Source of the DNA: Escherichia virus TH11
Sequence record: MT446389.1
DNA length: 45,305 bases
Direction: 5' to 3' (one strand)
Made by a program: the position numbers and the translations under genes. How positions within the stretch are numbered: position 1 is the stretch's first letter; every line of letters starts with the position of its first letter. Of the stretch, positions 13,887 through 44,615 are shown piece by piece. The notes under the pieces are model-generated. The model was not told the origin of the DNA and ran no database searches. It saw only the letters and a list, made by a program, of their open reading frames with translations.

Positions 13887-13947
13887 TTTGGCGCAATTCT
13901 GCGCGTGCTGTATCATTAAACCGTATATCTAAACAGGAGCGTTCATT

Positions 13948-14673
13948 ATGGGTTATCAACTTCCTAACGGGTCCAGCGTCCAGATTGGGTCCGTACTGGG
14001 CAGCGGCATCGCTGTTACGGCAGCTACCAACGCCGCCGCATCAATCTCTGACCTTACGCAAGGTTGCGTAATTACCTGCGCGGCTTCGCATGGTCTGGTT
14101 GTTGGCGACGTTGTTATGTTCACTAAAACCCCGTGGGTCCGAGCGCTTAATCGCGCATTCATCGTGGGTAAAGTAGCCGAGAACGACGTGACGCTGGCGC
14201 GCTTCGACTCCTCTGACGTCACAAAATACCCGACCGGCGCTTTCAACGCAGGCACTCCGGGCGAAGTGGTGAAGGTGTCGAGCTTTATCGACTTCCCTTT
14301 CATTACTAACGTTGCCGTGTCGGGTGGCGACCAGCAGACTACTACCTTCCAGCCGTTGCAGGTGAACACCGCAATCAGTCTTAACACCACGAAAAACCCG
14401 TTGGTACAGACTTACACCTTCACCCACGACGAAGAAGACCCGATCCGCCCAATCCTGGAAGACCTGGACGACACACAGAAAACCACTGTGATTAAGTTCA
14501 CTAACCCAGCGGCAGCAAGCGGCAAAGGTGAGATCCGTATCTACCCGGCAAAGGTATCTTTCCAGAAGATTCCTTCCGCTGAAGTAAACAACGTGGAAAC
14601 TGTACAGTCCACTCTGACCATGCAGTCTGATATGGTTATCTACCGTAAGGATCTGGTCGAGGCGTTGTCTTGA
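13948..14673 (+). CDS. major tail protein
   Basis: 241 aa followed by strong terminator and then chaperone genes; lambda V-like position. Confidence 0.6.
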   Translation: MGYQLPNGSSVQIGSVLGSGIAVTAATNAAASISDLTQGCVITCAASHGLVVGDVVMFTKTPWVRALNRAFIVGKVAENDVTLARFDSSDVTKYPTGAFNAGTPGEVVKVSSFIDFPFITNVAVSGGDQQTTTFQPLQVNTAISLNTTKNPLVQTYTFTHDEEDPIRPILEDLDDTQKTTVIKFTNPAAASGKGEIRIYPAKVSFQKIPSAEVNNVETVQSTLTMQSDMVIYRKDLVEALS

Positions 14674-14702
14674 TTTGGTCGCTTAAATAGCGAGTGTTAA
14701 TA

Positions 14703-14730
14703 TGGGGCCAGCACGGCCCCTTTTTTTTTA
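14703..14730 (+). terminator. rho-independent terminator
   Basis: ggggcc-agca-cggcccc followed by nine T. Confidence 0.55.
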
Positions 14731-15108
14731 TTGGAGAATACTACAATGGCTAAAGCACCACTCTTCACACTTGACCCAAAGCCGACCTTTAAGCTGCCGA
14801 TTGAGATCCCGCGCCCTGGTGAGAACGAACCCGGCAAAATGACGTTTACCGTACGCCACCGCCCGATCGACGAATTTTCGCAGACCATGCAGGACACTGA
14901 ACGCAAGCTGTCGGAATATGACGACAATGATCCGGACGGCTTTAATGTTATGGTTGAGGCCATCATGCACGTCGCCGAAGGCTGGAATCTGCCGGACGAA
15001 TTTAACGCGGAGAACGTCCGCCGCCTGGTGGTCAACTATCCACGCGCGTTCGGTGTGTTCCACACGTCGTACTATCTCGAACTGATGGGGTTGCGTGAAA
15101 AAAACTAA
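14731..15108 (+). CDS. tail assembly chaperone (G-like)
   Basis: 125 aa between major tail and tape measure; ends two codons after a slippery heptamer. Confidence 0.65.
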   Translation: MENTTMAKAPLFTLDPKPTFKLPIEIPRPGENEPGKMTFTVRHRPIDEFSQTMQDTERKLSEYDDNDPDGFNVMVEAIMHVAEGWNLPDEFNAENVRRLVVNYPRAFGVFHTSYYLELMGLREKN

Positions 15109-15422
15109 TTGAGGCGGCGCGACGCTTTTATGGTCCGCCGCCACCCTCCGAAGATTTAGCCGCAAGTTTATGGGGTGCGGCCCCCGAAGATGTTTGTCCG
15201 CCTGTTGCGCTATGGCCCGACAACGCGAAGATAGTCGCAGTCTTCACAGATTGCGCCACGCAATGGCGCACCGGATTTGGTGGCGCATACGGCATCGACT
15301 ACGGCGTGCTGGAGTGGTTATTTAAGATGCACGGTATCGAAAACGAGCAGCGCGCGTTTAAAGATATCAAGCTAATGGAACGAATCGCGCTTGATGAGAT
15401 GGCGCAGCAGAACCCCGCATAA
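14731..15422 (+). CDS. tail assembly chaperone GT-like fusion via -1 frameshift
   Basis: -1 frame stays open with no start codon from 15099 to stop at 15420-15422 (about 107 codons); slippery A_AAA_AAC at 15099-15105. Confidence 0.55.
15099..15142 (+). promoter_or_regulatory. programmed -1 frameshift signal
   Basis: Heptamer AAAAAAC in X_XXY_YYZ register; 7-bp stem GGCGGCG/CGCCGCC starting about 8 nt downstream. Confidence 0.5.
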
Positions 15423-15780
15423 TGCAGCGGGACGTCCCGTTTTGTCCCGCCTCTGTAAAACTGCATACCTACTCACACCCACTGCATAAACCAAAAACGG
15501 GACAAACGGGACGTCCCGATCTGTCCCGCCATGTAAATGTGCATACCTATTCAGATTTCGTGCATAAAGTAAGCGGGACAAAAAGCGGGACAAACAAGGA
15601 GCGGGACAAAGCGGGACAGCACCCCGTCCCCGCCAGTGCTGCCGCGGGTTGCGGCCGATCGGGACAAGCGGGACAAACCCCAGTCTTTCAGACTAGACGG
15701 GGGTCAATGGCCCCCCTCGTCTGAGACTGAATAAGGTTTGTTTTAAATTCGCTGATACAATGTCAATCGGCAACTGCATA
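15266..15780. repeat. tandem duplication unit 1 (515 bp)
   Basis: Identical to 15781-16295; track ORFs at +515 offset give identical translations; both junctions read directly. Confidence 0.85.
15426..15729. repeat. GCGGGACAAA repeat array copy 1 with terminal stem-loop
   Basis: At least 12 GGGAC(A/G) cores in both orientations, two GCGGGACGTCCCG palindromes, repeated TGCATACCTAYTCA and TGCATAAA, then GC-rich hairpin at 15680-15729. Confidence 0.75.
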
Positions 15781-16295
15781 GCGCACCGGATTTGGTGGCG
15801 CATACGGCATCGACTACGGCGTGCTGGAGTGGTTATTTAAGATGCACGGTATCGAAAACGAGCAGCGCGCGTTTAAAGATATCAAGCTAATGGAACGAAT
15901 CGCGCTTGATGAGATGGCGCAGCAGAACCCCGCATAATGCAGCGGGACGTCCCGTTTTGTCCCGCCTCTGTAAAACTGCATACCTACTCACACCCACTGC
16001 ATAAACCAAAAACGGGACAAACGGGACGTCCCGATCTGTCCCGCCATGTAAATGTGCATACCTATTCAGATTTCGTGCATAAAGTAAGCGGGACAAAAAG
16101 CGGGACAAACAAGGAGCGGGACAAAGCGGGACAGCACCCCGTCCCCGCCAGTGCTGCCGCGGGTTGCGGCCGATCGGGACAAGCGGGACAAACCCCAGTC
16201 TTTCAGACTAGACGGGGGTCAATGGCCCCCCTCGTCTGAGACTGAATAAGGTTTGTTTTAAATTCGCTGATACAATGTCAATCGGCAACTGCATA
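15781..16295. repeat. tandem duplication unit 2 (515 bp)
   Basis: Perfect copy of 15266-15780; junction caactgcata|gcgcaccgga. Confidence 0.85.
15941..16244. repeat. GCGGGACAAA repeat array copy 2
   Basis: Identical to 15426-15729 as part of the 515-bp duplication. Confidence 0.75.
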
Positions 16296-16312
16296 AAAAA
16301 GGGGACTGCATA

Positions 16313-18955
16313 ATGGCAGATCAAGCGGCAGGCATCACGCTGAAGGCTGATGTTGCACAAATCAGAACGGCAAATACTGTGCTGGACTCCTTCGCACAGA
16401 AATCCGAGAACACAGAAAACAAGGTTAAGAAATTAAACGACACCCTCGGCAAATCCAAAAAGGTCACTGGCGACGCCGCTGGTGGAATGGAGAAGCTGGC
16501 GAACGAATCGCAGCGCGCCGCCGACGGCATGACGAAACAGGAGAGACTTGCCAACAGGTTAGGCATGTCGACCAAAAACCTGGGCTTTGCCTCGCGTAAC
16601 GCCGCATTCCAGTTACAGGATATCGCAGTTACGCTTGAGATGGGTATGCCTGTTCACCGCGTCATGCTTCAGCAGTTACCGCAGCTAACTGGGGCGTTCG
16701 GCGGTCTTGGTAACACGCTGCGTTTTGTTGCGGGCTTCCTCGGTCCGGTAGGGATCGGCATTGCAGCACTAACGGCAACGTTAGGCGTAGGAGTGGCGGT
16801 TACGTCCCGTGCCGAAAACCAGGTCGCAGCGCTTAACAAGACGCTGGCGCTGTCCGGTAACATTTCCGGCCTCACTGCAAACCAGATCCTTGTGCTATCC
16901 GAGAACGCCGAGCGCATGGGCGGGTCATTCCGCAAGACGCGTGACACAATCCAGGCGTTGGCGGCGGCGGGTGTGAAAGCGGGTGCGGACTTCGGCACGC
17001 TGGCGAAAGTGGTGAATGACTTTGCGAAGGTGTCCAGCCAGCCGGTCGAGGATGTGGTCGCGGCGGTGGCGAAGCTGTCTACAGACCCGGTAGGCGGCTT
17101 GCGAGCATTGGCTGATAAGTATCACGTCGTAAACGAAGCGCAGATCCAGCAGGTGCAGTCGCTTGTGGATATGGGTCGCGAAACCGAAGCGGTGGCGCTG
17201 GCTAACAAAACAGCCGCAGCGTCGTTTACCACTATGACCAACGATATTAAGTCCAACATGGGTACGCTTGAGCGTTCGATGAACGTCGTCACATCGGCAG
17301 CTAAATCAATGTGGGATGCCATCCTGGATGTTGGACGCGCGCAGTCCTCTAATGAGTCTGAGATGAAAGCGCGTGAATCATTGCAGAGGCTGACCACGGC
17401 TTACTATGCCGAGATGAAAGCGGTAAACGCTGCCGGTGGGGTGATGACCGAAGCGCAGAAAGCGCGTATTAACATGCTTTACAGCGAACTGGTAGCCCAG
17501 GAGAAGGTGGTGGCATCGCTCACCCTGCGCAACCGTGCCGAGCGAGACAACGCAAATGCCGCGGACGAAGCAGCAAAGGCGAACGAAGAGGCAAACCGCA
17601 CCGCCCGCGACCGCGCTGCGTTTGAGAAGGAGTACGCAACCAACGCGAAGCGGCGAGCCGACGAGATCGCCCGCCTCAATTTGCTGAATAAGCGCGGTGT
17701 TATTAACGAGAAAGAGCTTGCCGAGGCGGTGAAGCAGGTAAACGAGCGTTACAAAGACCCCGCCCCGAAGAAGGCCGCCGCTGTTCGAGTCGATGCCGGG
17801 CTGAAAATGCTGGAAGTCGCGCGAAGCGAATTAGCCCAGCTTCGTGAGTCTGGAAAGCAGATCGAAGCCAACTATTCGACGCAGACCCGCACGCAACGCG
17901 CGCAAGCGGCCCTTAACAAGCTGATTGCCGACAACGAGCAGTTAATCGCTGCGAGCAAAGAAAGGGCGCTGACGGCAGCAGAGAAGCAGCAAATGGCGGG
18001 ATTCGAGGCGGTTAAATCTGTACGCGAGCAGATCGTCGAAGAAGCCAAATTGCTGGACGCGAAAGAGAAGCAGGTCAAGGCGCACGCGCAGATCGACGCC
18101 TTCGTTAAGAACCAGAACGCCGAGCTAAAAGCCACCGCGGCGGGCTATGCGCTTTCCACTCGCGAAGCGGCTAACCTGCGCGAAGAATTGCAGCTAATTG
18201 ACCGCCTTAAGCGGGTGGGCGCTAGTGATACCGATATTGATCTGGCGGTGTCTAAGCTGCGCGAAGTGCAGGAAGCACAGACCGGTGCTAACGCCTCGCT
18301 ATGGGATGGATTAAGCCGCGGGCTTAAGGATAGCGTTGATGAAATGGGTAACGGCTATACGCAGATGGCGTCACTAACAAAATTCACGTTCGGCGCTATG
18401 CAGGACACGATGAACGAGTTTTTCGAGACTGGCAAGCTGAACGCAAAGGATATGGTTAAGTCCATCCTGAGCGAATTAATCAAGCTGGCTACATCGCAGG
18501 CGTTCAAGTCCATCGTTAGCGCTTTCGGTGGCGACGGCGGCAAAAACGGATTGTTCGGTGCTATCTTCTCCGGCCTGACTAAGAATGCGGACGGCGGAGC
18601 GTACGCAGGGGGCAATCTCGCGGCCTATTCGGGGCAAGTGGTAAGCCAGCCTACCTTTTTCAGTTACGGCGTCCAGGCGTTCGCTAAGGGTGCTGGATTG
18701 ATGGGGGAGGCTGGACCCGAGGCCATCATGCCGCTGAAGCGCGGGCCAGACGGGAAACTTGGCGTTGCCGCTGCCGGTGTAGGCGGGGGGATGATTGTAA
18801 CGACCAACGTTAACATGGGGACCGGTAAGACGGATACCAGTGTTAGCGGACCAGACCCGCGCACCGCGCAGGCGTTCGGAAAGCAAATCACCGAGTCGGT
18901 CAAGGCCGAGATCGTGAAGGCGACGAAACCGGGTGGTGTACTTTACAAACGATGA
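16313..18955 (+). CDS. tail tape measure protein
   Basis: 880 aa, A/Q/E/K-rich coiled coil, Gly-rich C-terminus, between chaperone and tip genes. Confidence 0.85.
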   Translation: MADQAAGITLKADVAQIRTANTVLDSFAQKSENTENKVKKLNDTLGKSKKVTGDAAGGMEKLANESQRAADGMTKQERLANRLGMSTKNLGFASRNAAFQLQDIAVTLEMGMPVHRVMLQQLPQLTGAFGGLGNTLRFVAGFLGPVGIGIAALTATLGVGVAVTSRAENQVAALNKTLALSGNISGLTANQILVLSENAERMGGSFRKTRDTIQALAAAGVKAGADFGTLAKVVNDFAKVSSQPVEDVVAAVAKLSTDPVGGLRALADKYHVVNEAQIQQVQSLVDMGRETEAVALANKTAAASFTTMTNDIKSNMGTLERSMNVVTSAAKSMWDAILDVGRAQSSNESEMKARESLQRLTTAYYAEMKAVNAAGGVMTEAQKARINMLYSELVAQEKVVASLTLRNRAERDNANAADEAAKANEEANRTARDRAAFEKEYATNAKRRADEIARLNLLNKRGVINEKELAEAVKQVNERYKDPAPKKAAAVRVDAGLKMLEVARSELAQLRESGKQIEANYSTQTRTQRAQAALNKLIADNEQLIAASKERALTAAEKQQMAGFEAVKSVREQIVEEAKLLDAKEKQVKAHAQIDAFVKNQNAELKATAAGYALSTREAANLREELQLIDRLKRVGASDTDIDLAVSKLREVQEAQTGANASLWDGLSRGLKDSVDEMGNGYTQMASLTKFTFGAMQDTMNEFFETGKLNAKDMVKSILSELIKLATSQAFKSIVSAFGGDGGKNGLFGAIFSGLTKNADGGAYAGGNLAAYSGQVVSQPTFFSYGVQAFAKGAGLMGEAGPEAIMPLKRGPDGKLGVAAAGVGGGMIVTTNVNMGTGKTDTSVSGPDPRTAQAFGKQITESVKAEIVKATKPGGVLYKR

Positions 18956-28931: not shown

Positions 28932-29264
28932 TTATTTAAGTGCGCTAGTCACCAGTGTTTTTTCCATATTGCGGAAGTCTTCCGGCGTCATGAGGATTTT
29001 GGACCCATCCTCGCCAGTGAGCACGACCATAGGCTGGACTTCTTGATCCGCAATGCCGAAATTGGCGGCTTTAACGGTCTTCCCTAACGAGGCCACCGTA
29101 TCCTCGGCAACGCGCATTCCACTGTTATACGCATTAATCTCGCCATCCAGGCGCACGGACAGGTCCGAAGGCTTGAACGCGCCGCCGGTCTTGATAGGCC
29201 AGCCCTTGAGGCTGTCGAATTGCGCTGCCGTTGTATCGATCTGAATCTCGTCATGCACGGTCAT
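28932..29264 (-). CDS. hypothetical protein
   Basis: 110 aa from internal ATG (MTVHDEIQ); track N-terminal extension overlaps a better-supported small gene. Confidence 0.4.
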   Translation of the reverse strand: MTVHDEIQIDTTAAQFDSLKGWPIKTGGAFKPSDLSVRLDGEINAYNSGMRVAEDTVASLGKTVKAANFGIADQEVQPMVVLTGEDGSKILMTPEDFRNMEKTLVTSALK

Positions 29265-34366: not shown

Positions 34367-34406
34367 TTCTAAAATCCTCGATAGTGCTAACCGGCACACT
34401 ATACCG

Positions 34407-34685
34407 CTACGCGACCAATTCAGCAACCAATAAATCACAGTCGGCTATGTTGTCGATAACGCGAACGTCCGCACCGCGGCGGGCCATTCGTTCATGTTCA
34501 CGTACCTGGTGCGGCTTCGGTTTCCCACCTGGGCGCTTCACTTCGACGAACACTATTTTGCCGTTGATGATAATAATCAGGTCGGGCGCACCTGCGCGCC
34601 CCTCCCATGCCAGTTTTCGGCAGAATCCCCCAACGGCTTTAACCAGCTTCATCAGGTGACTTTGTATCTTGCCTTCTGGTGTCAT
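34407..34685 (-). CDS. VRR-NUC domain nuclease
   Basis: 92 aa with PD-(D/E)XK core GAPDLIII...VFVEVKRPGGKP...Q. Confidence 0.7.
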   Translation of the reverse strand: MTPEGKIQSHLMKLVKAVGGFCRKLAWEGRAGAPDLIIIINGKIVFVEVKRPGGKPKPHQVREHERMARRGADVRVIDNIADCDLLVAELVA

Positions 34686-34873
34686 TTGGTCTGCAACTCC
34701 ACGTTACGCAGACGAAGGTCTACCGGTATATCCGACCGGCCGGTTAGTGCCAGCGCCAGGTTTTCAGGCGTGACGAGTGCCGTAATGGTCTTGCCACGTT
34801 CCAGTCTAATGACGATTCGAATCTCGTCATTGTCCGTCGCGCCAGCGCGCATAATGCTCATTTCTGCTTTCAT
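34682..34873 (-). CDS. hypothetical protein
   Basis: About 63 aa from internal ATG (MKAEMS) abutting DNA polymerase stop. Confidence 0.35.
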   Translation of the reverse strand: MKAEMSIMRAGATDNDEIRIVIRLERGKTITALVTPENLALALTGRSDIPVDLRLRNVELQTK

Positions 34874-34877
34874 AATC

Positions 34878-37169
34878 TTACTTCCTGTACCTGTACATAA
34901 TGTCGCCTTCGGCGGCAAGTGGGAAGCCTTTCGCCCAAATAGGCAGGTCGCACATCAGCGCGCAAAGCTCCTCGGTCGTGTAGTCGTCGGTGTCCGGCAC
35001 TTCTGTGATCAATTCGTCGTGTACTGACAGGACGATTTCATATCCGGCAGCTTCAACGCCTGGCATGGACCATGCGAGAATATCGCGGCACAACGCCTGT
35101 ACGATGTTCTCCGTCAGTTTGCCGCCGTAGGTGTACTGGAAGCCCCACTGGCGCGTAGTCTGATTCTCGCCCTGGTATTTGATGCGGGTGCTGGTGCGCT
35201 TCTTGCCGGTGTCTTCGTCAATCTCGGTCGTGACCGACAGCGCGATGCCTGGGTAGCTCATGATGCGCCCGGACGGCAACTCAATTTTCAACCACCACCC
35301 AGCGGCGTTCGGGTCGTCGCGCTCCTCGTCGAAGGTTGGGTCGTGCTTCGCCTTCGTGCGCACAATCTTAAGCGCTTTCCTACCGTCCGGGCGAACGTTC
35401 GCGCCGGCCCAGTATGCTTTGCCAGGATTGCGGATCGCACATAACACCGCGTCCTCAAGCTCGGCCCAAAAGGCTACCGTCTTCGGGTGAGCCTCGCGCC
35501 ACATACGTTTGATTGCGTCACAAGTCAGCCATACGTTTTTCGGCAGTATGTATGTTGGGCGCTCGTCCTTCTTACCGGGCTTCGGCGGGCGCTTCGCTTC
35601 GTTAATGCGGGCGTACTCATAACCACGTTTCGCCGCGGCCCAAATGTGATCCGGGAACGTGCCTTTCATCACGTCCGCCATAGTGTAAAGGTCGAGGCCC
35701 AGGTTTTTAGCGAACTGCAAGAACGCCGCGACGCCGCCACCATAGCCCAGTCCCAATTCACACGCCTTACCGATCTGGCGCAAGTCTTTGCGGTTGGCTT
35801 TGATGTAATCCGGGTCAAGGCCGAACATCTTACCGGCAGTCTCGCAATAGATATCGCGACCGGCCTTAAACACCATTAGCGCGGTTTTCTCGCCCGCGAT
35901 CCAGGCAAGGCCACGCCCTTCCACGTTGGAGTAGTCCGCGACGACAAACTTCTTGCCCTTCGCCGGAATGATGCACCCACGAACGGTCGAGGCGGTCAGC
36001 TTAGATATGTCATACGCCCAGTGCGCGGTCCCGCGTAACAGGGAGTTGATGCCGTTGGTGAGCATGTGCGACCGCACCCAAAACGAGACGTCGCTCTCGC
36101 CTTCGCGGCGCTTAATCTTCCCTTCGTGGTCGTCGCTATACTCGCCGCGTGCCAGGTTTTGCGGCTGGAAGCCTTTACCTGCCCAGCGCAGCGTGCGCTT
36201 TGCACCACCATACTGAAGACACCCACGGCGGCGACCATCTGCGGATAAGCCATTAACGAGCGGATTGTACTTAGTCGAGGCCGTTGATGACGCGCCGAGG
36301 CGCATTTCGATAAGCGCTTTGCCTTCGTCGGGGAAGTCCGTGTCTTCAAGCAGGTCGTTAAGTGTGGATTTCTGCGCGTTGTGGATTGTGAACGCCGGGG
36401 CGATATCACGCAGGATTGGCAGGAAGTCATTGCCTGTCAGTTTACCACCAAATCGCTCCCAGGCTTCCTCCTTCAATTCTTCCTTATGCGCCTGCACCGC
36501 TTTGATCGCGGCGTTCGCCAGGTCAACGTCCACATAGAATCCGCGGTCGTTGATCAACTGGTCAATAAGCAGTATCTCGTCTTCCTTCGGAGTATTACCC
36601 CAGTCCGGTATGCGCCAGTAGACCTCACGCATCGCGATAATATCCAGCGCGGCATATCGCAGAAATTTGGCCCATTCTTCAGGGTGAGTCTCGCGCGTGT
36701 AGCGGCGTATTTTGTAGGTCTTAGGGGTAGGCTTACAGAATCGTTTGATCAGCGCCTTGCCTGCCTTATCCTTCGCGTGCTCTGCGTCAACGCCCAGCAC
36801 CTGACACTGCATATCGAGGCTACCCGGCAGCGCGTGCCGAAAGGCCATAATCATGGTATCTTCGATCTGGCACACTGGCAGGTCAATGCCCCACTTCTCG
36901 CGAATGACCAGGCGGTCAAACAGGAGGCCGTTAGCCATCACGATTTTTGCTTTCTTGCGGCATACCTGGCGGAGCGCCTTGCGCAGTTCACGCGGCATTG
37001 TTGGGGATTCAGTGGCATCCCATGTCTGCACGCGGCCCTCGTCGATGGCGTATGTGCAAATCATAATCTCGGTGGTTGGGTGCTCTGCGTAGGCGTACGC
37101 CCCTACTTTCTTCAGGTCAACCCCGCTGAATGTCTCGGTGTCGAGAAACAGGCGTTCGAAGTCTTTCAT
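34878..37169 (-). CDS. DNA polymerase, family A, with 3'-5' exonuclease domain
   Basis: 763 aa; Exo I motif FLDTETFSG; typical Pol I-like C-terminal polymerase region. Confidence 0.9.
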   Translation of the reverse strand: MKDFERLFLDTETFSGVDLKKVGAYAYAEHPTTEIMICTYAIDEGRVQTWDATESPTMPRELRKALRQVCRKKAKIVMANGLLFDRLVIREKWGIDLPVCQIEDTMIMAFRHALPGSLDMQCQVLGVDAEHAKDKAGKALIKRFCKPTPKTYKIRRYTRETHPEEWAKFLRYAALDIIAMREVYWRIPDWGNTPKEDEILLIDQLINDRGFYVDVDLANAAIKAVQAHKEELKEEAWERFGGKLTGNDFLPILRDIAPAFTIHNAQKSTLNDLLEDTDFPDEGKALIEMRLGASSTASTKYNPLVNGLSADGRRRGCLQYGGAKRTLRWAGKGFQPQNLARGEYSDDHEGKIKRREGESDVSFWVRSHMLTNGINSLLRGTAHWAYDISKLTASTVRGCIIPAKGKKFVVADYSNVEGRGLAWIAGEKTALMVFKAGRDIYCETAGKMFGLDPDYIKANRKDLRQIGKACELGLGYGGGVAAFLQFAKNLGLDLYTMADVMKGTFPDHIWAAAKRGYEYARINEAKRPPKPGKKDERPTYILPKNVWLTCDAIKRMWREAHPKTVAFWAELEDAVLCAIRNPGKAYWAGANVRPDGRKALKIVRTKAKHDPTFDEERDDPNAAGWWLKIELPSGRIMSYPGIALSVTTEIDEDTGKKRTSTRIKYQGENQTTRQWGFQYTYGGKLTENIVQALCRDILAWSMPGVEAAGYEIVLSVHDELITEVPDTDDYTTEELCALMCDLPIWAKGFPLAAEGDIMYRYRK

Positions 37170-41815: not shown

Positions 41816-44080
41816 ATGAGCTTGATTAAATTCGCTGTAACAAAACCCGCTAAAAAAGGCGAAAAAGCCAGGGCGGAAAACTTCCAGATGACGACCGATG
41901 AGTTTTTCGAATTTATCAAAGATGCGAAAGAAATCTCCTCGGTGCATATCAACAAGACGGAAGATAAAGCCGAGTATGCGCGCCGCAAGCGTAAGGCCGA
42001 TGGCATCGTGGCGTATACCAGTGACGGATTGCGTCGTAAGACCAGTGCGGTGGACCGCTCGATCCTGTTCTTTGATATTGACCGCACCGACACCCGCACC
42101 CTGCGCCGCTGCCGTAAGGCGTTCATCGACGCGGGACTGGAACATGTATTTCACACCACAACCGGCGACCGCCACCCGCTGAAAGGTGGCACGCGTTGCG
42201 CTCGTTTCCTGGTGCTCACCGACAAGCCTGTACCGGCGGAAGACCTAGGCCGCGTACAGTATGCACTGTTACACCAACTGGGCCTGTCAGATGTGGACTT
42301 CGATGATTGTACGAAAGACACAAACCGCCTTATGTACCTACCACACCAGCAGTCCGTTGTTAAGTGTCACTACGGCAAACGTGCCCGCGTCCGTCGTCTG
42401 CTTCGCCTGGCGGATAAGCTGGGAGTGGAAAAAGAGGAAGTACGACGCGAACTGACCCAGGGCGATGACGGCGTGGCTGACGGTATTCTGGATTGGTGCT
42501 TCCAGGCGGGATTCGAACCGCTGTCGTCCGGTCGTGGTTATGAAGTGCCATGCCCGAACGAACACCTGCACAGTGGTGAAGGGTCCACCGCTATCATGGT
42601 TAAGGATGGCGAGATCCGTTTCAAGTGTATGCATACCGGCAACGAGTGTTGCTCGGAGCTGAACAGACACCAGCACCTGGCGCTACGTCTTATCGGGATC
42701 CCGGACCACCTGAACGTCGAACCGCACAACATGTCACGTAAGCAAATCGCCGCCATCCTTCCAGGACTGGACGACGAGGAAGTGGAATCGTGCTATGCGC
42801 ATATCGTTGATGCGGTCGGAGACGGCGACGAGTACGGCGGATGTACAGATGCAGACCTGGACAACGAGCCGGTTGCGCTGTTCAGTAAGCACGACCCGAT
42901 CATCGAGGGGCTGATTAACTTCAAATCGACCTGGTATCTTGCTGGCGAGTCGAACATCGGTAAATCGTTCTACGTGCTGGGCCAGATGGCGTCAGTATCT
43001 GCCGGTATTCCGTTCGGCGGCGCGAAGGTCGTCCAGTGCCACAACTTCTATTTCGACGCGGAAGGTGGTGAAGCCTCCAACCAGCGTAAGGAAGCATTGC
43101 AGATCAAATATGAGCACGACCTGGACAAGCTGCACATTATCGATCTGCAGTCACGCGGCTGGGATATCACCAGCAAATCCGGCTTGCGTGAAGTTATCAG
43201 CTTTATCAACCGCACCGCTAACGGCGAGCCGGTTGGCCTGGTGGCGTTCGACTCACTCAACCAGACTGTCGCGTTGCGGTCAGCCGATGCTAAACCGTTC
43301 GACGAGAACAACGCCAGCGATATGGGCGAAGTGGTCAAAGCGCTGAAGGCTATTGCGGAAAACACAGGCGGCAGTGCGGGAGTCATCCACCACCCGGCGA
43401 AAGGTGCAAACGGCAGCAGATCTCCCCGCGGGTCCGGCGCGCTGCATGGTGCTGTCGATTCCGCGTTCTTCCTGGAGCAACCGGACGACAATCAGCCGGG
43501 CCAATTGAACCTGTACCATGAGAAGGCACGTAACGGCATCAAGCAAGCGCCGCGCGGCTTCGTCCTGCTTAAGTGCAAGGTTAAGGTGGATCTCCGCAAG
43601 TCAGAGGCGTTCGAATCGCACCAGTCCACCAGCACCGGGCCTGACTTCGGTGATGTGGTTGCAGGATGGGACGTCAAGCCGATCGCATCAACGCCACGCG
43701 ACGAGACTCTTTACCTCGTACCTGTCGCCCTGGCACCGTTCGCTATTGAGCAGGCGAAGGCCGCGGGTAAGGCAGCAGTTAAGGAAGAGAACCCCGCAGG
43801 ACCGCGCAACGAAAAAGAGAAAGTGCTTTATGCGGCGCTGGAAAAACTGATGGAAGATAACCCGGACCATACCGGATTCAGTAAATCGGCAATCGTCCGC
43901 CAGGCTGGACTTGCGAAAGGTGGCACATCGACGAAGGCAATAGACGATATGGTCGAGCGCGGCGTGCTCGGTTTCTATACAGATCCGCACACCGGGGCCA
44001 TCTATGGGTCATCGAATATCGTCATCAAAACGAATATACCCATCACGCTTTCGGCGACCGATGATGATTTAAAAGATTAA
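41816..44080 (+). CDS. bifunctional primase-polymerase / helicase
   Basis: N-terminal AEP-like FFDIDRTD, Cys/His zinc cluster, C-terminal Walker A AGESNIGKS and Walker B LVAFDSL. Confidence 0.8.
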   Translation: MSLIKFAVTKPAKKGEKARAENFQMTTDEFFEFIKDAKEISSVHINKTEDKAEYARRKRKADGIVAYTSDGLRRKTSAVDRSILFFDIDRTDTRTLRRCRKAFIDAGLEHVFHTTTGDRHPLKGGTRCARFLVLTDKPVPAEDLGRVQYALLHQLGLSDVDFDDCTKDTNRLMYLPHQQSVVKCHYGKRARVRRLLRLADKLGVEKEEVRRELTQGDDGVADGILDWCFQAGFEPLSSGRGYEVPCPNEHLHSGEGSTAIMVKDGEIRFKCMHTGNECCSELNRHQHLALRLIGIPDHLNVEPHNMSRKQIAAILPGLDDEEVESCYAHIVDAVGDGDEYGGCTDADLDNEPVALFSKHDPIIEGLINFKSTWYLAGESNIGKSFYVLGQMASVSAGIPFGGAKVVQCHNFYFDAEGGEASNQRKEALQIKYEHDLDKLHIIDLQSRGWDITSKSGLREVISFINRTANGEPVGLVAFDSLNQTVALRSADAKPFDENNASDMGEVVKALKAIAENTGGSAGVIHHPAKGANGSRSPRGSGALHGAVDSAFFLEQPDDNQPGQLNLYHEKARNGIKQAPRGFVLLKCKVKVDLRKSEAFESHQSTSTGPDFGDVVAGWDVKPIASTPRDETLYLVPVALAPFAIEQAKAAGKAAVKEENPAGPRNEKEKVLYAALEKLMEDNPDHTGFSKSAIVRQAGLAKGGTSTKAIDDMVERGVLGFYTDPHTGAIYGSSNIVIKTNIPITLSATDDDLKD

Positions 44081-44155
44081 ATTTTGCGCGCATTGGTTGC
44101 CGATATGGGAATTCCCATATCGCTAGAAGATTAAATTTTGCGCGCATTGGTTGCC
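44073..44155. repeat. direct repeat - palindrome - direct repeat element
   Basis: 29-bp direct repeat at 44073-44101 and 44127-44155 flanking perfect 20-bp palindrome gatatgggaattcccatatc at 44102-44121. Confidence 0.7.
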
Positions 44156-44213
44156 ATTTTGAGTGTTTTTATCTGGTCGTATTGGTTGCCGTGTAGTGTA
44201 AATATAGTGAATA

Positions 44214-44402
44214 GTTATGCAGTTTTATTGCATAAAGTAAGCGGGACAAAAAGCGGGACAAACAAGGGGCGGGACAAAGCGGGACAGCACCCCTGTCCCA
44301 CCCCGGATGACGCGGCCTGGAGAGGAGCGGGACAGGCGGGACAACCCCCAGTCTTTCAGACTAGACGGGGGGTCAATGGCCCCCCTCGTCTGAGACTGAA
44401 TA
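44214..44402. repeat. GCGGGACAAA repeat array copy 3 with terminal stem-loop
   Basis: Paralogue of 15565-15735 with a few substitutions; preceded by AT-rich stretch; hairpin at 44350-44398. Confidence 0.7.
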
Positions 44403-44543
44403 AAATCCGGGGATTGCAAAATACACGGCAGCATGATGCGAAGTGCGGTCGAGGATGAACTAGGCAACCAATGCGAGATGCATTATGCTGAGTGAAAAAT
44501 GCAGTTTGCAGTCACAGCAGATAGCGATCAACTTTTTCATGCG

Positions 44544-44594
44544 CATGTTTGATATTGGTTGCATTCAACCCGGCACCTGGCTATATTGGTTGCG
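44544..44594. promoter_or_regulatory. ATTGGTTGC motif pair upstream of gene at 44616
   Basis: ATTGGTTGCA at 44544-44553 and ATTGGTTGC at 44584-44592; reverse-orientation copy near 44466. Confidence 0.4.
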
Positions 44595-44615
44595 CACCAA
44601 CATGAGGACTGAACA

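Follow-up and report, generated by a model that had tools for sequence, protein, structure and literature searches.

A probable -1 frameshift at the tail assembly chaperone locus of Escherichia virus TH11 and related Dhillonviruses

Does the pair of overlapping open reading frames that precedes the tape measure gene of Escherichia virus TH11 encode two tail assembly chaperones from a single start codon, the longer one being produced by a -1 ribosomal frameshift? We addressed this question in a window of 45,305 nucleotides, the whole stretch of DNA analyzed here (record MT446389.1; one strand), for which a sequence-only reading had proposed a frameshift of the G/GT type. The tail genes of this window are arranged in the order tail terminator, major tail protein, G, T, tape measure and minor tail protein. 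The major tail protein gene (13948..14673, forward strand; PHROG 584 'major tail protein', E = 7.5e-74) served as the upstream synteny anchor and the tape measure gene (16313..18955, forward strand; PHROG 24 'tail length tape measure protein', E = 7e-181) as the downstream one. G and T are encoded on the same strand as these flanking tail genes, with the major tail protein on one side and the tape measure on the other, which is the canonical location of a G/GT pair. Using megablast, region 13900-16400 was matched to 158 phage records, nearly all of them E. coli Dhillonviruses, and the best match was Escherichia virus TH13 (MT446391.1) with 100% identity.

Gene G (14746..15108, forward strand) encodes a tail assembly chaperone of 120 aa with an ATG start and a TAA stop; a check against the sequence placed this stop at 15106-15108, where the 0 frame had been proposed to end. 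The protein matched the Pfam family Phage_TAC_4 (PF08748) along the entire profile (positions 1-124 of 124; E = 1.4e-23) with a score of 83.9 bits for a gathering cut-off of 21.1, which makes it a full-length member of this family. The codon TTG 14731 is the mechanical start of the open reading frame only. ATG 14746 is the likely start of G, because the motif GGAG is found at 14733-36, nine nt upstream of this codon, because GenBank relatives carry an annotation of the same gene of 363 nt and because the Pfam match begins at residue 1. With this start, the fusion of G and T would reach 225 aa instead of the roughly 230 aa that had been predicted. Across 19 distinct Dhillonvirus sequences, the variable sites of G are distributed as 10/6/74 over codon positions 1/2/3. 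Both G and T matched tail-category families of PHROGs, and one of these families (phrog_17368; 213 positions) was matched by G in its first half and by T in its second half. A sequence search of PDB yielded no match, and NCBIfam presented no model for the G half or the T half.

The extension T occupies positions 15105..15422 of the forward strand, in the -1 frame after the shift, and consists of 105 codons and a TAA. The -1 frame is indeed open from 15099 to the TAA at 15420-15422, for a total of 107 sense codons. The Pfam domain DUF1799 was identified over its full profile (positions 1-80 of 80; E = 7.2e-21) and corresponds to nt 15171-15401, or residues 25-101 of the extension. The proposal that this frame has no start codon is correct for the first 69 codons, but four in-frame starts are found further downstream (GTG 15306 and ATG 15327, 15375 and 15399), all inside or after DUF1799 and confined to the last 39 codons. 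No start codon therefore stands ahead of the domain: the domain begins at 15171 and the first in-frame start is GTG 15306. DUF1799 was the only Pfam match of the extension at E<=0.1; no match to the lambda-type family Phage_tail_T was obtained, which places this T part outside the sequence family of lambda gpT. Such a match does not define the G/GT functional class, whose conservation holds 'despite low sequence similarity' (PMC5009743).

We then analyzed sequence variation in the extension across the same 19 distinct Dhillonvirus sequences. From 15108 to 15419, the variable sites are distributed as 22/9/70 over codon positions 1/2/3 when read in the -1 frame and as 9/70/22 when read in the 0 frame. 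T is under purifying selection at the protein level in the -1 frame. The 22/9/70 pattern further indicates that the region upstream of the first possible start codon is selected like the rest of T.

The proposed slippery heptamer A_AAA_AAC was found at 15099..15105 of the forward strand, in the register of the 0 frame (AAA 15100-02 and AAC 15103-05), with AAA (Lys) as the P-site codon and AAC (Asn) as the A-site codon. The stop codon of G had been described as lying two codons after the heptamer; it directly abuts it, AAC being the last sense codon. On the 5' side, the heptamer is abutted by a TGA of the -1 frame (15096..15098, forward strand), which sets the upstream limit of the shift window. 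Together, this TGA and the 0-frame TAA at 15106-08 confine a productive shift to 15099-15105. In the 45-kb window, the motif AAAAAAC was observed only twice, at the G/T shift site (15099) and at 28957 on the reverse strand, relative to 8.2 occurrences expected from shuffled sequences (all 100 shuffles contained at least two). This scarcity is consistent with the motif being avoided at sites at which slippage is not desired.

The junction is conserved. The segment 15094-15119, which includes the heptamer, is invariant among the 19 distinct Dhillonvirus sequences. In 16 near-identical Dhillonvirus loci (15 from IMG/VR and JLBYU37 from GenBank) and in four distant IMG/VR loci whose G shows 42-56% identity, we observed GAAAAAAAC followed by the stop codon and by 100-105 open codons in the -1 frame. 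A scan with one genome per species provided 33 prophage loci from many genera, mostly Proteobacteria. An in-register heptamer was found at the end of G in all 37 evaluable lineages, in which the identity of G ranges from 22 to 61% in the aligned subset: A_AAA_AAC in 23 lineages, G_GGA_AAC in 13 and G_GGA_AAG in one. The stop codon of G is located directly 3' of the heptamer in 31 of these 37 lineages, and each of the 23 G reading frames that we tested belongs to Phage_TAC_4. Four prophage loci were considered as candidate in-frame fusions of G and T and were rejected: their -1 frame is open far upstream, yet they present the normal heptamer and stop codon. Equivalent heptamer sites were also identified at the end of G in the T1-like phage Christensenvirus CY1 and in Cronobacter phiES15. 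In Klebsiella phage FairDinkum (Webervirus), G ends at about 755-766 with GCA_AAA_GTC_TAA and without an X_XXY_YYZ heptamer. We note that the only slippery sequence available to the chaperone pair of FairDinkum is a short run of the A_AAA type.

We extended the comparison to homologs of T. A HMMER scan identified 1060 homologs of the extension, and 1154 phage records carry a T homolog. Since 40 aligned T homologs proved too diverse for scanning loci, an alignment of six sequences was used. Many of the homologs begin with KKL or GKL, which correspond to AAA-AAA-CUN or GGG-AAA-CUN in the -1 frame. In distant homologs, the similarity starts with the first -1 codons 3' of the heptamer (KKL or GKL) and continues through a conserved Ala-rich stretch with an aromatic end, such as KKLIEAARRFY. 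None of the best 150 of the 1060 homologs was a natural in-frame fusion of G and T, which would have demonstrated that both parts function within one chain: all were stand-alone calls of 38-150 aa. Likewise, a homolog search with the 225-aa fusion retrieved two matches to G only and no fusion protein.

Other explanations of this arrangement were considered. T could be a small gene of its own that is initiated at GTG 15306 or ATG 15327, without any frameshift. Both codons are in frame, and the records of JLBYU37, SECphi18 and McMelon annotate 'DUF1799' stubs of 31-38 aa, but such a stub would cover less than half of DUF1799 (extension residues 25-101). Moreover, the roughly 200 nt upstream of GTG 15306 are likewise substituted mainly at third positions of the -1 frame and are open in every relative, and distant homologs are conserved at the protein level back to the heptamer. 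Independent initiation of T is disfavored by the missing start codon and by the selection upstream of GTG 15306, and we consider it to have only a very slim chance of being correct. The overlap could also be a relic or an artefact, in the form of a homopolymer sequencing error in a single G-T gene or of a decaying T frame without function. In favor of this view, the site consists of a homopolymer run, GenBank marks the record UNVERIFIED and the window differs structurally from that record. Against it, 19 Dhillonviruses that were sequenced independently, as well as prophages from many genera, share the length of the A run and the abutting stop, and T is under purifying selection. A sequencing error is excluded by these many independent genomes, and the relic or artefact explanation overall appears the least credible that we considered.

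Finally, the frame could be changed in the transcript rather than by the ribosome, if RNA polymerase added one A within the run of seven A's that is present at 15098-15104, giving ...REKK-LIEAARR.... One inserted A leads to the same downstream frame as a -1 shift, and a small yield is sufficient for a protein of the GT type (PMC5009743). However, what is conserved across relatives is the X_XXY_YYZ register and not the length of the run. Of the 37 junctions, 13 are G_GGA_AAC and one is G_GGA_AAG. In these 14 sites, only three A's follow a run of three to four G's, and many of the A_AAA_AAC sites contain only six A's (A6-A7 in relatives). Productive slippage in E. coli reportedly occurs at runs of about 8-9 or more (Baranov et al. 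2005, as cited in PMC4066793), and no Dhillonvirus sequence contains a run longer than A7, which leaves the locus short of a conserved run of about 8-9. The 14 homologous G3A3 sites and the many sites with six A's disfavor transcriptional slippage, which we regard as highly unlikely.

With a probability of roughly 0.9, we conclude that genes G and T give rise to two proteins that share a start codon, the longer one through a -1 frameshift. The gene order, the assignment of G to Phage_TAC_4, the selected -1 reading frame and the conserved in-register heptamer all support the G/GT interpretation that the sequence-only reading had offered. We infer the ribosomal shift itself, its rate, the roles of the hairpin and of the stop codon, and the binding partners. 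In the proposed mechanism, most ribosomes would translate 14746-15105 and terminate at TAA 15106, yielding the 120-aa chaperone G. A minority would slip back by one nucleotide with tRNA-Lys on AAA 15100-02 and tRNA-Asn on AAC 15103-05, and these tRNAs would re-pair with AAA 15099-01 and AAA 15102-04. The next codon decoded by the shifted ribosomes would be the CUA that starts at 15105, and they would stay in the -1 frame until TAA 15420, giving a GT protein of 225 aa with the predicted junction ...G-L-R-E-K-N-L-I-E-A-A-R-R.... The hairpin located 7 nt downstream, and possibly the adjacent stop codon as well, may pause the ribosome and result in a low GT:G ratio. If the pair behaves as in lambda, both proteins would coat the tape measure protein through their G part, and the rare GT would recruit the major tail protein through its T (DUF1799) part; both G and GT would be absent from the virion. 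In the papers searched, we found no frameshift report specific to Dhillonvirus or HK578, nor protein-level, ribosome-profiling or reporter evidence for any Dhillonvirus.

A GC-rich hairpin, the candidate stimulator of the shift, is found at 15113..15142 of the forward strand, with an outer stem GGCGGCG/CGCCGCC and an inner stem GAC/GUC. The two outer arms are located as originally described (15113-15119 and 15136-15142), and the spacer between the heptamer and the stem is 7 nt long (15106-15112) rather than about 8 nt. For the 45 nt downstream of the heptamer, the predicted fold is a hairpin with an energy of -20 kcal/mol (z = -3.5), a stability that none of 200 shuffled sequences reached. Both arms are invariant among the 19 distinct Dhillonvirus sequences, including five synonymous third positions, although 67% of the third positions of T are variable in the same set. 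Our own binomial estimate of the probability that all five would be invariant is about 0.004. However, this conservation could partly be explained by protein constraint, since the stem overlaps conserved Ala-Ala and Pro-Pro codons. Covariation is nearly absent: one inner pair is A-U here, two relatives have G-C at this place and most have an A.C mismatch. In the wider family, the 50 nt downstream present z<-2 in 12 of 37 lineages (about one expected), with a mean z of -0.97, and many distant relatives have no convincing downstream hairpin. It is plausible that the hairpin is a stimulator at the level of the genus, and the many relatives without a convincing one argue against a family-wide requirement. 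No Rfam family was found anywhere in the window.

The heptamer of the family is almost always X_XXA_AAC, with a 0-frame stop codon abutting it in 31 of 37 lineages, a tighter rule than a slippery site at any place in the overlap. This led us to consider a 'shifty stop', in which termination would compete with slippage and thereby set the G:GT ratio, with tRNA-Asn slipping during the time that the stop codon spends waiting in the A site. We view this possibility as tentative and rather unlikely. If it were true, the GC hairpin would act as an added brake in the genus Dhillonvirus, these junctions would constitute a distinct sub-mechanism within G/GT sites, and the use here of two heptamers that shift poorly in E. 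coli would be explained. Without stimulators, A_AAA_AAC is a poor shifter in E. coli (PMC4066793).

A close known counterpart is gpG/gpGT of phage lambda (Levin, Hendrix & Casjens 1993; Xu, Hendrix & Duda 2004, 2013, 2014; summarised in PMC5009743). In lambda, G and GT are produced at a ratio of about 30:1, and the amount of GT required is a few per cent of that of G; there, the tape measure protein is the partner of the G part and the major tail protein that of the T part (PMC5009743). As in lambda, the locus consists of an overlapping pair of reading frames between the major tail and tape measure genes, and a -1 shift at an X_XXY_YYZ site near the end of G is predicted to give a C-terminally extended GT, with a site of low efficiency expected. 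The two systems differ in their heptamer (A_AAA_AAC here and G_GGA_AAG in lambda) and in their T part, which here is DUF1799 without a Pfam match to the Phage_tail_T of lambda. Another difference is that here the stop codon of G abuts the heptamer and a GC hairpin lies 7 nt downstream. The lambda shift is reported to require no structure downstream.

There is also a close likeness with T1-like phages (Drexlerviridae) and many proteobacterial prophages, which possess Phage_TAC_4 and DUF1799 in the same order and in a -1 relation. Their junctions (A_AAA_AAC or G_GGA_AAC) are of the same kind as the one described here, but the identity of their G is 22-61% and their downstream hairpins differ or are absent. 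The same heptamer is used in IS1 insA-insB', where A_AAA_AAC leads to a small amount of fusion protein in E. coli (PMC4066793); unlike here, the product of IS1 is a transposase and not a virion assembly factor, and IS1 has no established stimulator. In the haloarchaeal siphoviruses HCTV-1, -2 and -5, the likeness considered is that of a g-t frameshift, and the hosts are archaea. For the related Edwardsiella phage eiAU, this conserved frameshift was noted by position only (PMC3025963). Relative to the hairpin-stimulated sites of dnaX and of the IS3 family, the Dhillonvirus stem is stable and invariant in the genus, but covariation is essentially absent and a z<-2 is reached in only 12 of 37 family members.

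The probable G/GT frameshift of this locus is an ordinary and widely conserved mechanism of long-tailed phages that is unannotated in the public Dhillonvirus records inspected. None of the seven GenBank records that we inspected (four Dhillonviruses and three from other groups) annotates a joined GT coding sequence: G is annotated alone, and T is either missing or given as a stub of 31-38 aa or as a separate reading frame whose start is arbitrary. In PHROGs, the families of both G and T carry the label 'tail length tape measure protein', seemingly a wrong label passed on by transfer, and in Pfam the T part still goes by the name DUF1799. From this comparison, DUF1799 can be identified as the domain that forms the T part of Phage_TAC_4 chaperones and that would be accessed through a -1 shift at a fixed heptamer. 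Many of the 1154 phage records with a T homolog are candidates for a joined GT coding sequence, provided that each junction is checked, since at least one phage (Webervirus) lacks the heptamer. The main value of these results lies in annotation; knowledge of tail assembly or of recoding is left unchanged.

The 3' end of T is included in a duplication. A unit of 515 bp is present as two exact tandem copies on the forward strand (15266-15780 and 15781-16295). The sequence-only reading had assigned the last 52 codons of the extension to the duplicated unit; the overlap is real, but as the unit starts at 15266 it comprises about 51 sense codons and the stop. The first copy carries the real 3' end of T and leaves T intact, and the second carries an orphan 3' fragment of T (15781-15937) that has no way of joining G. 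The duplication spans these last codons of T, the entire spacer up to the tape measure gene, and the region of the putative tape measure promoter and ribosome binding site. It is absent from the GenBank record of TH13 (MT446391.1) and from 16 other Dhillonvirus loci, which all present a single copy; either a real variant or an artefact of the assembly may account for it. The window is identical to the TH13 record apart from a rotated start, the 515-bp duplication and a difference in a 587-bp repeat, which is found as two tandem copies in MT446391.1 (29939-31112) and as one copy in the window (34368-34956).

T and the tape measure gene are separated by a spacer of 374-406 nt, which contains 8-11 CGGGACA motifs and a strong conserved hairpin. 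This spacer is non-coding, based on the lack of codon periodicity and on the lack of a PHROG match for a 100-aa reading frame (15422-15724) that overlaps the stop codon of T. This reading frame was rejected as a gene: its substitutions are distributed as 41/48/38 over the codon positions and its annotation is inconsistent among relatives. The spacer element itself (15423-15780, repeated at 15938-16295) is a dense array of CGGGACA in both orientations with the palindrome AAACGGGACGTCCCGTTT, and the strong conserved hairpin AGTCTTTCAGACTAGACGGGGG...CCCCCCTCGTCTGAGACT lies 3' of the array. CGGGACA was counted 26 times in the window, relative to 6.1 occurrences expected. The element was kept between T and the tape measure gene in all the Dhillonviruses examined and did not match any Rfam family. 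It resembles an array for protein binding with a terminator behind it.

On the other side of the chaperone pair, a consensus scan and the sequence revealed a terminator-like hairpin (GGGGCCAGCACGGCCCC and a T9 run; 14704..14729, forward strand) between the major tail protein gene and G, more precisely between the stop of the former (14673) and the start of the latter (14746). This putative terminator likely attenuates read-through into G, and G, T and the tape measure gene would then be transcribed less than the major tail protein gene.

A paralog of the CGGGACA element (198 bp, 87% identical) was detected at 44207-44403, in an intergenic region that follows a reading frame of 754 aa (41816-44080). 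In this long intergenic region (44080-44600), ATTGGTTGC motifs are repeated at about 44095, 44150, 44183, 44553 and 44585, adjoining this second CGGGACA array. The region 44080-44600 may be an early regulatory region or an origin.
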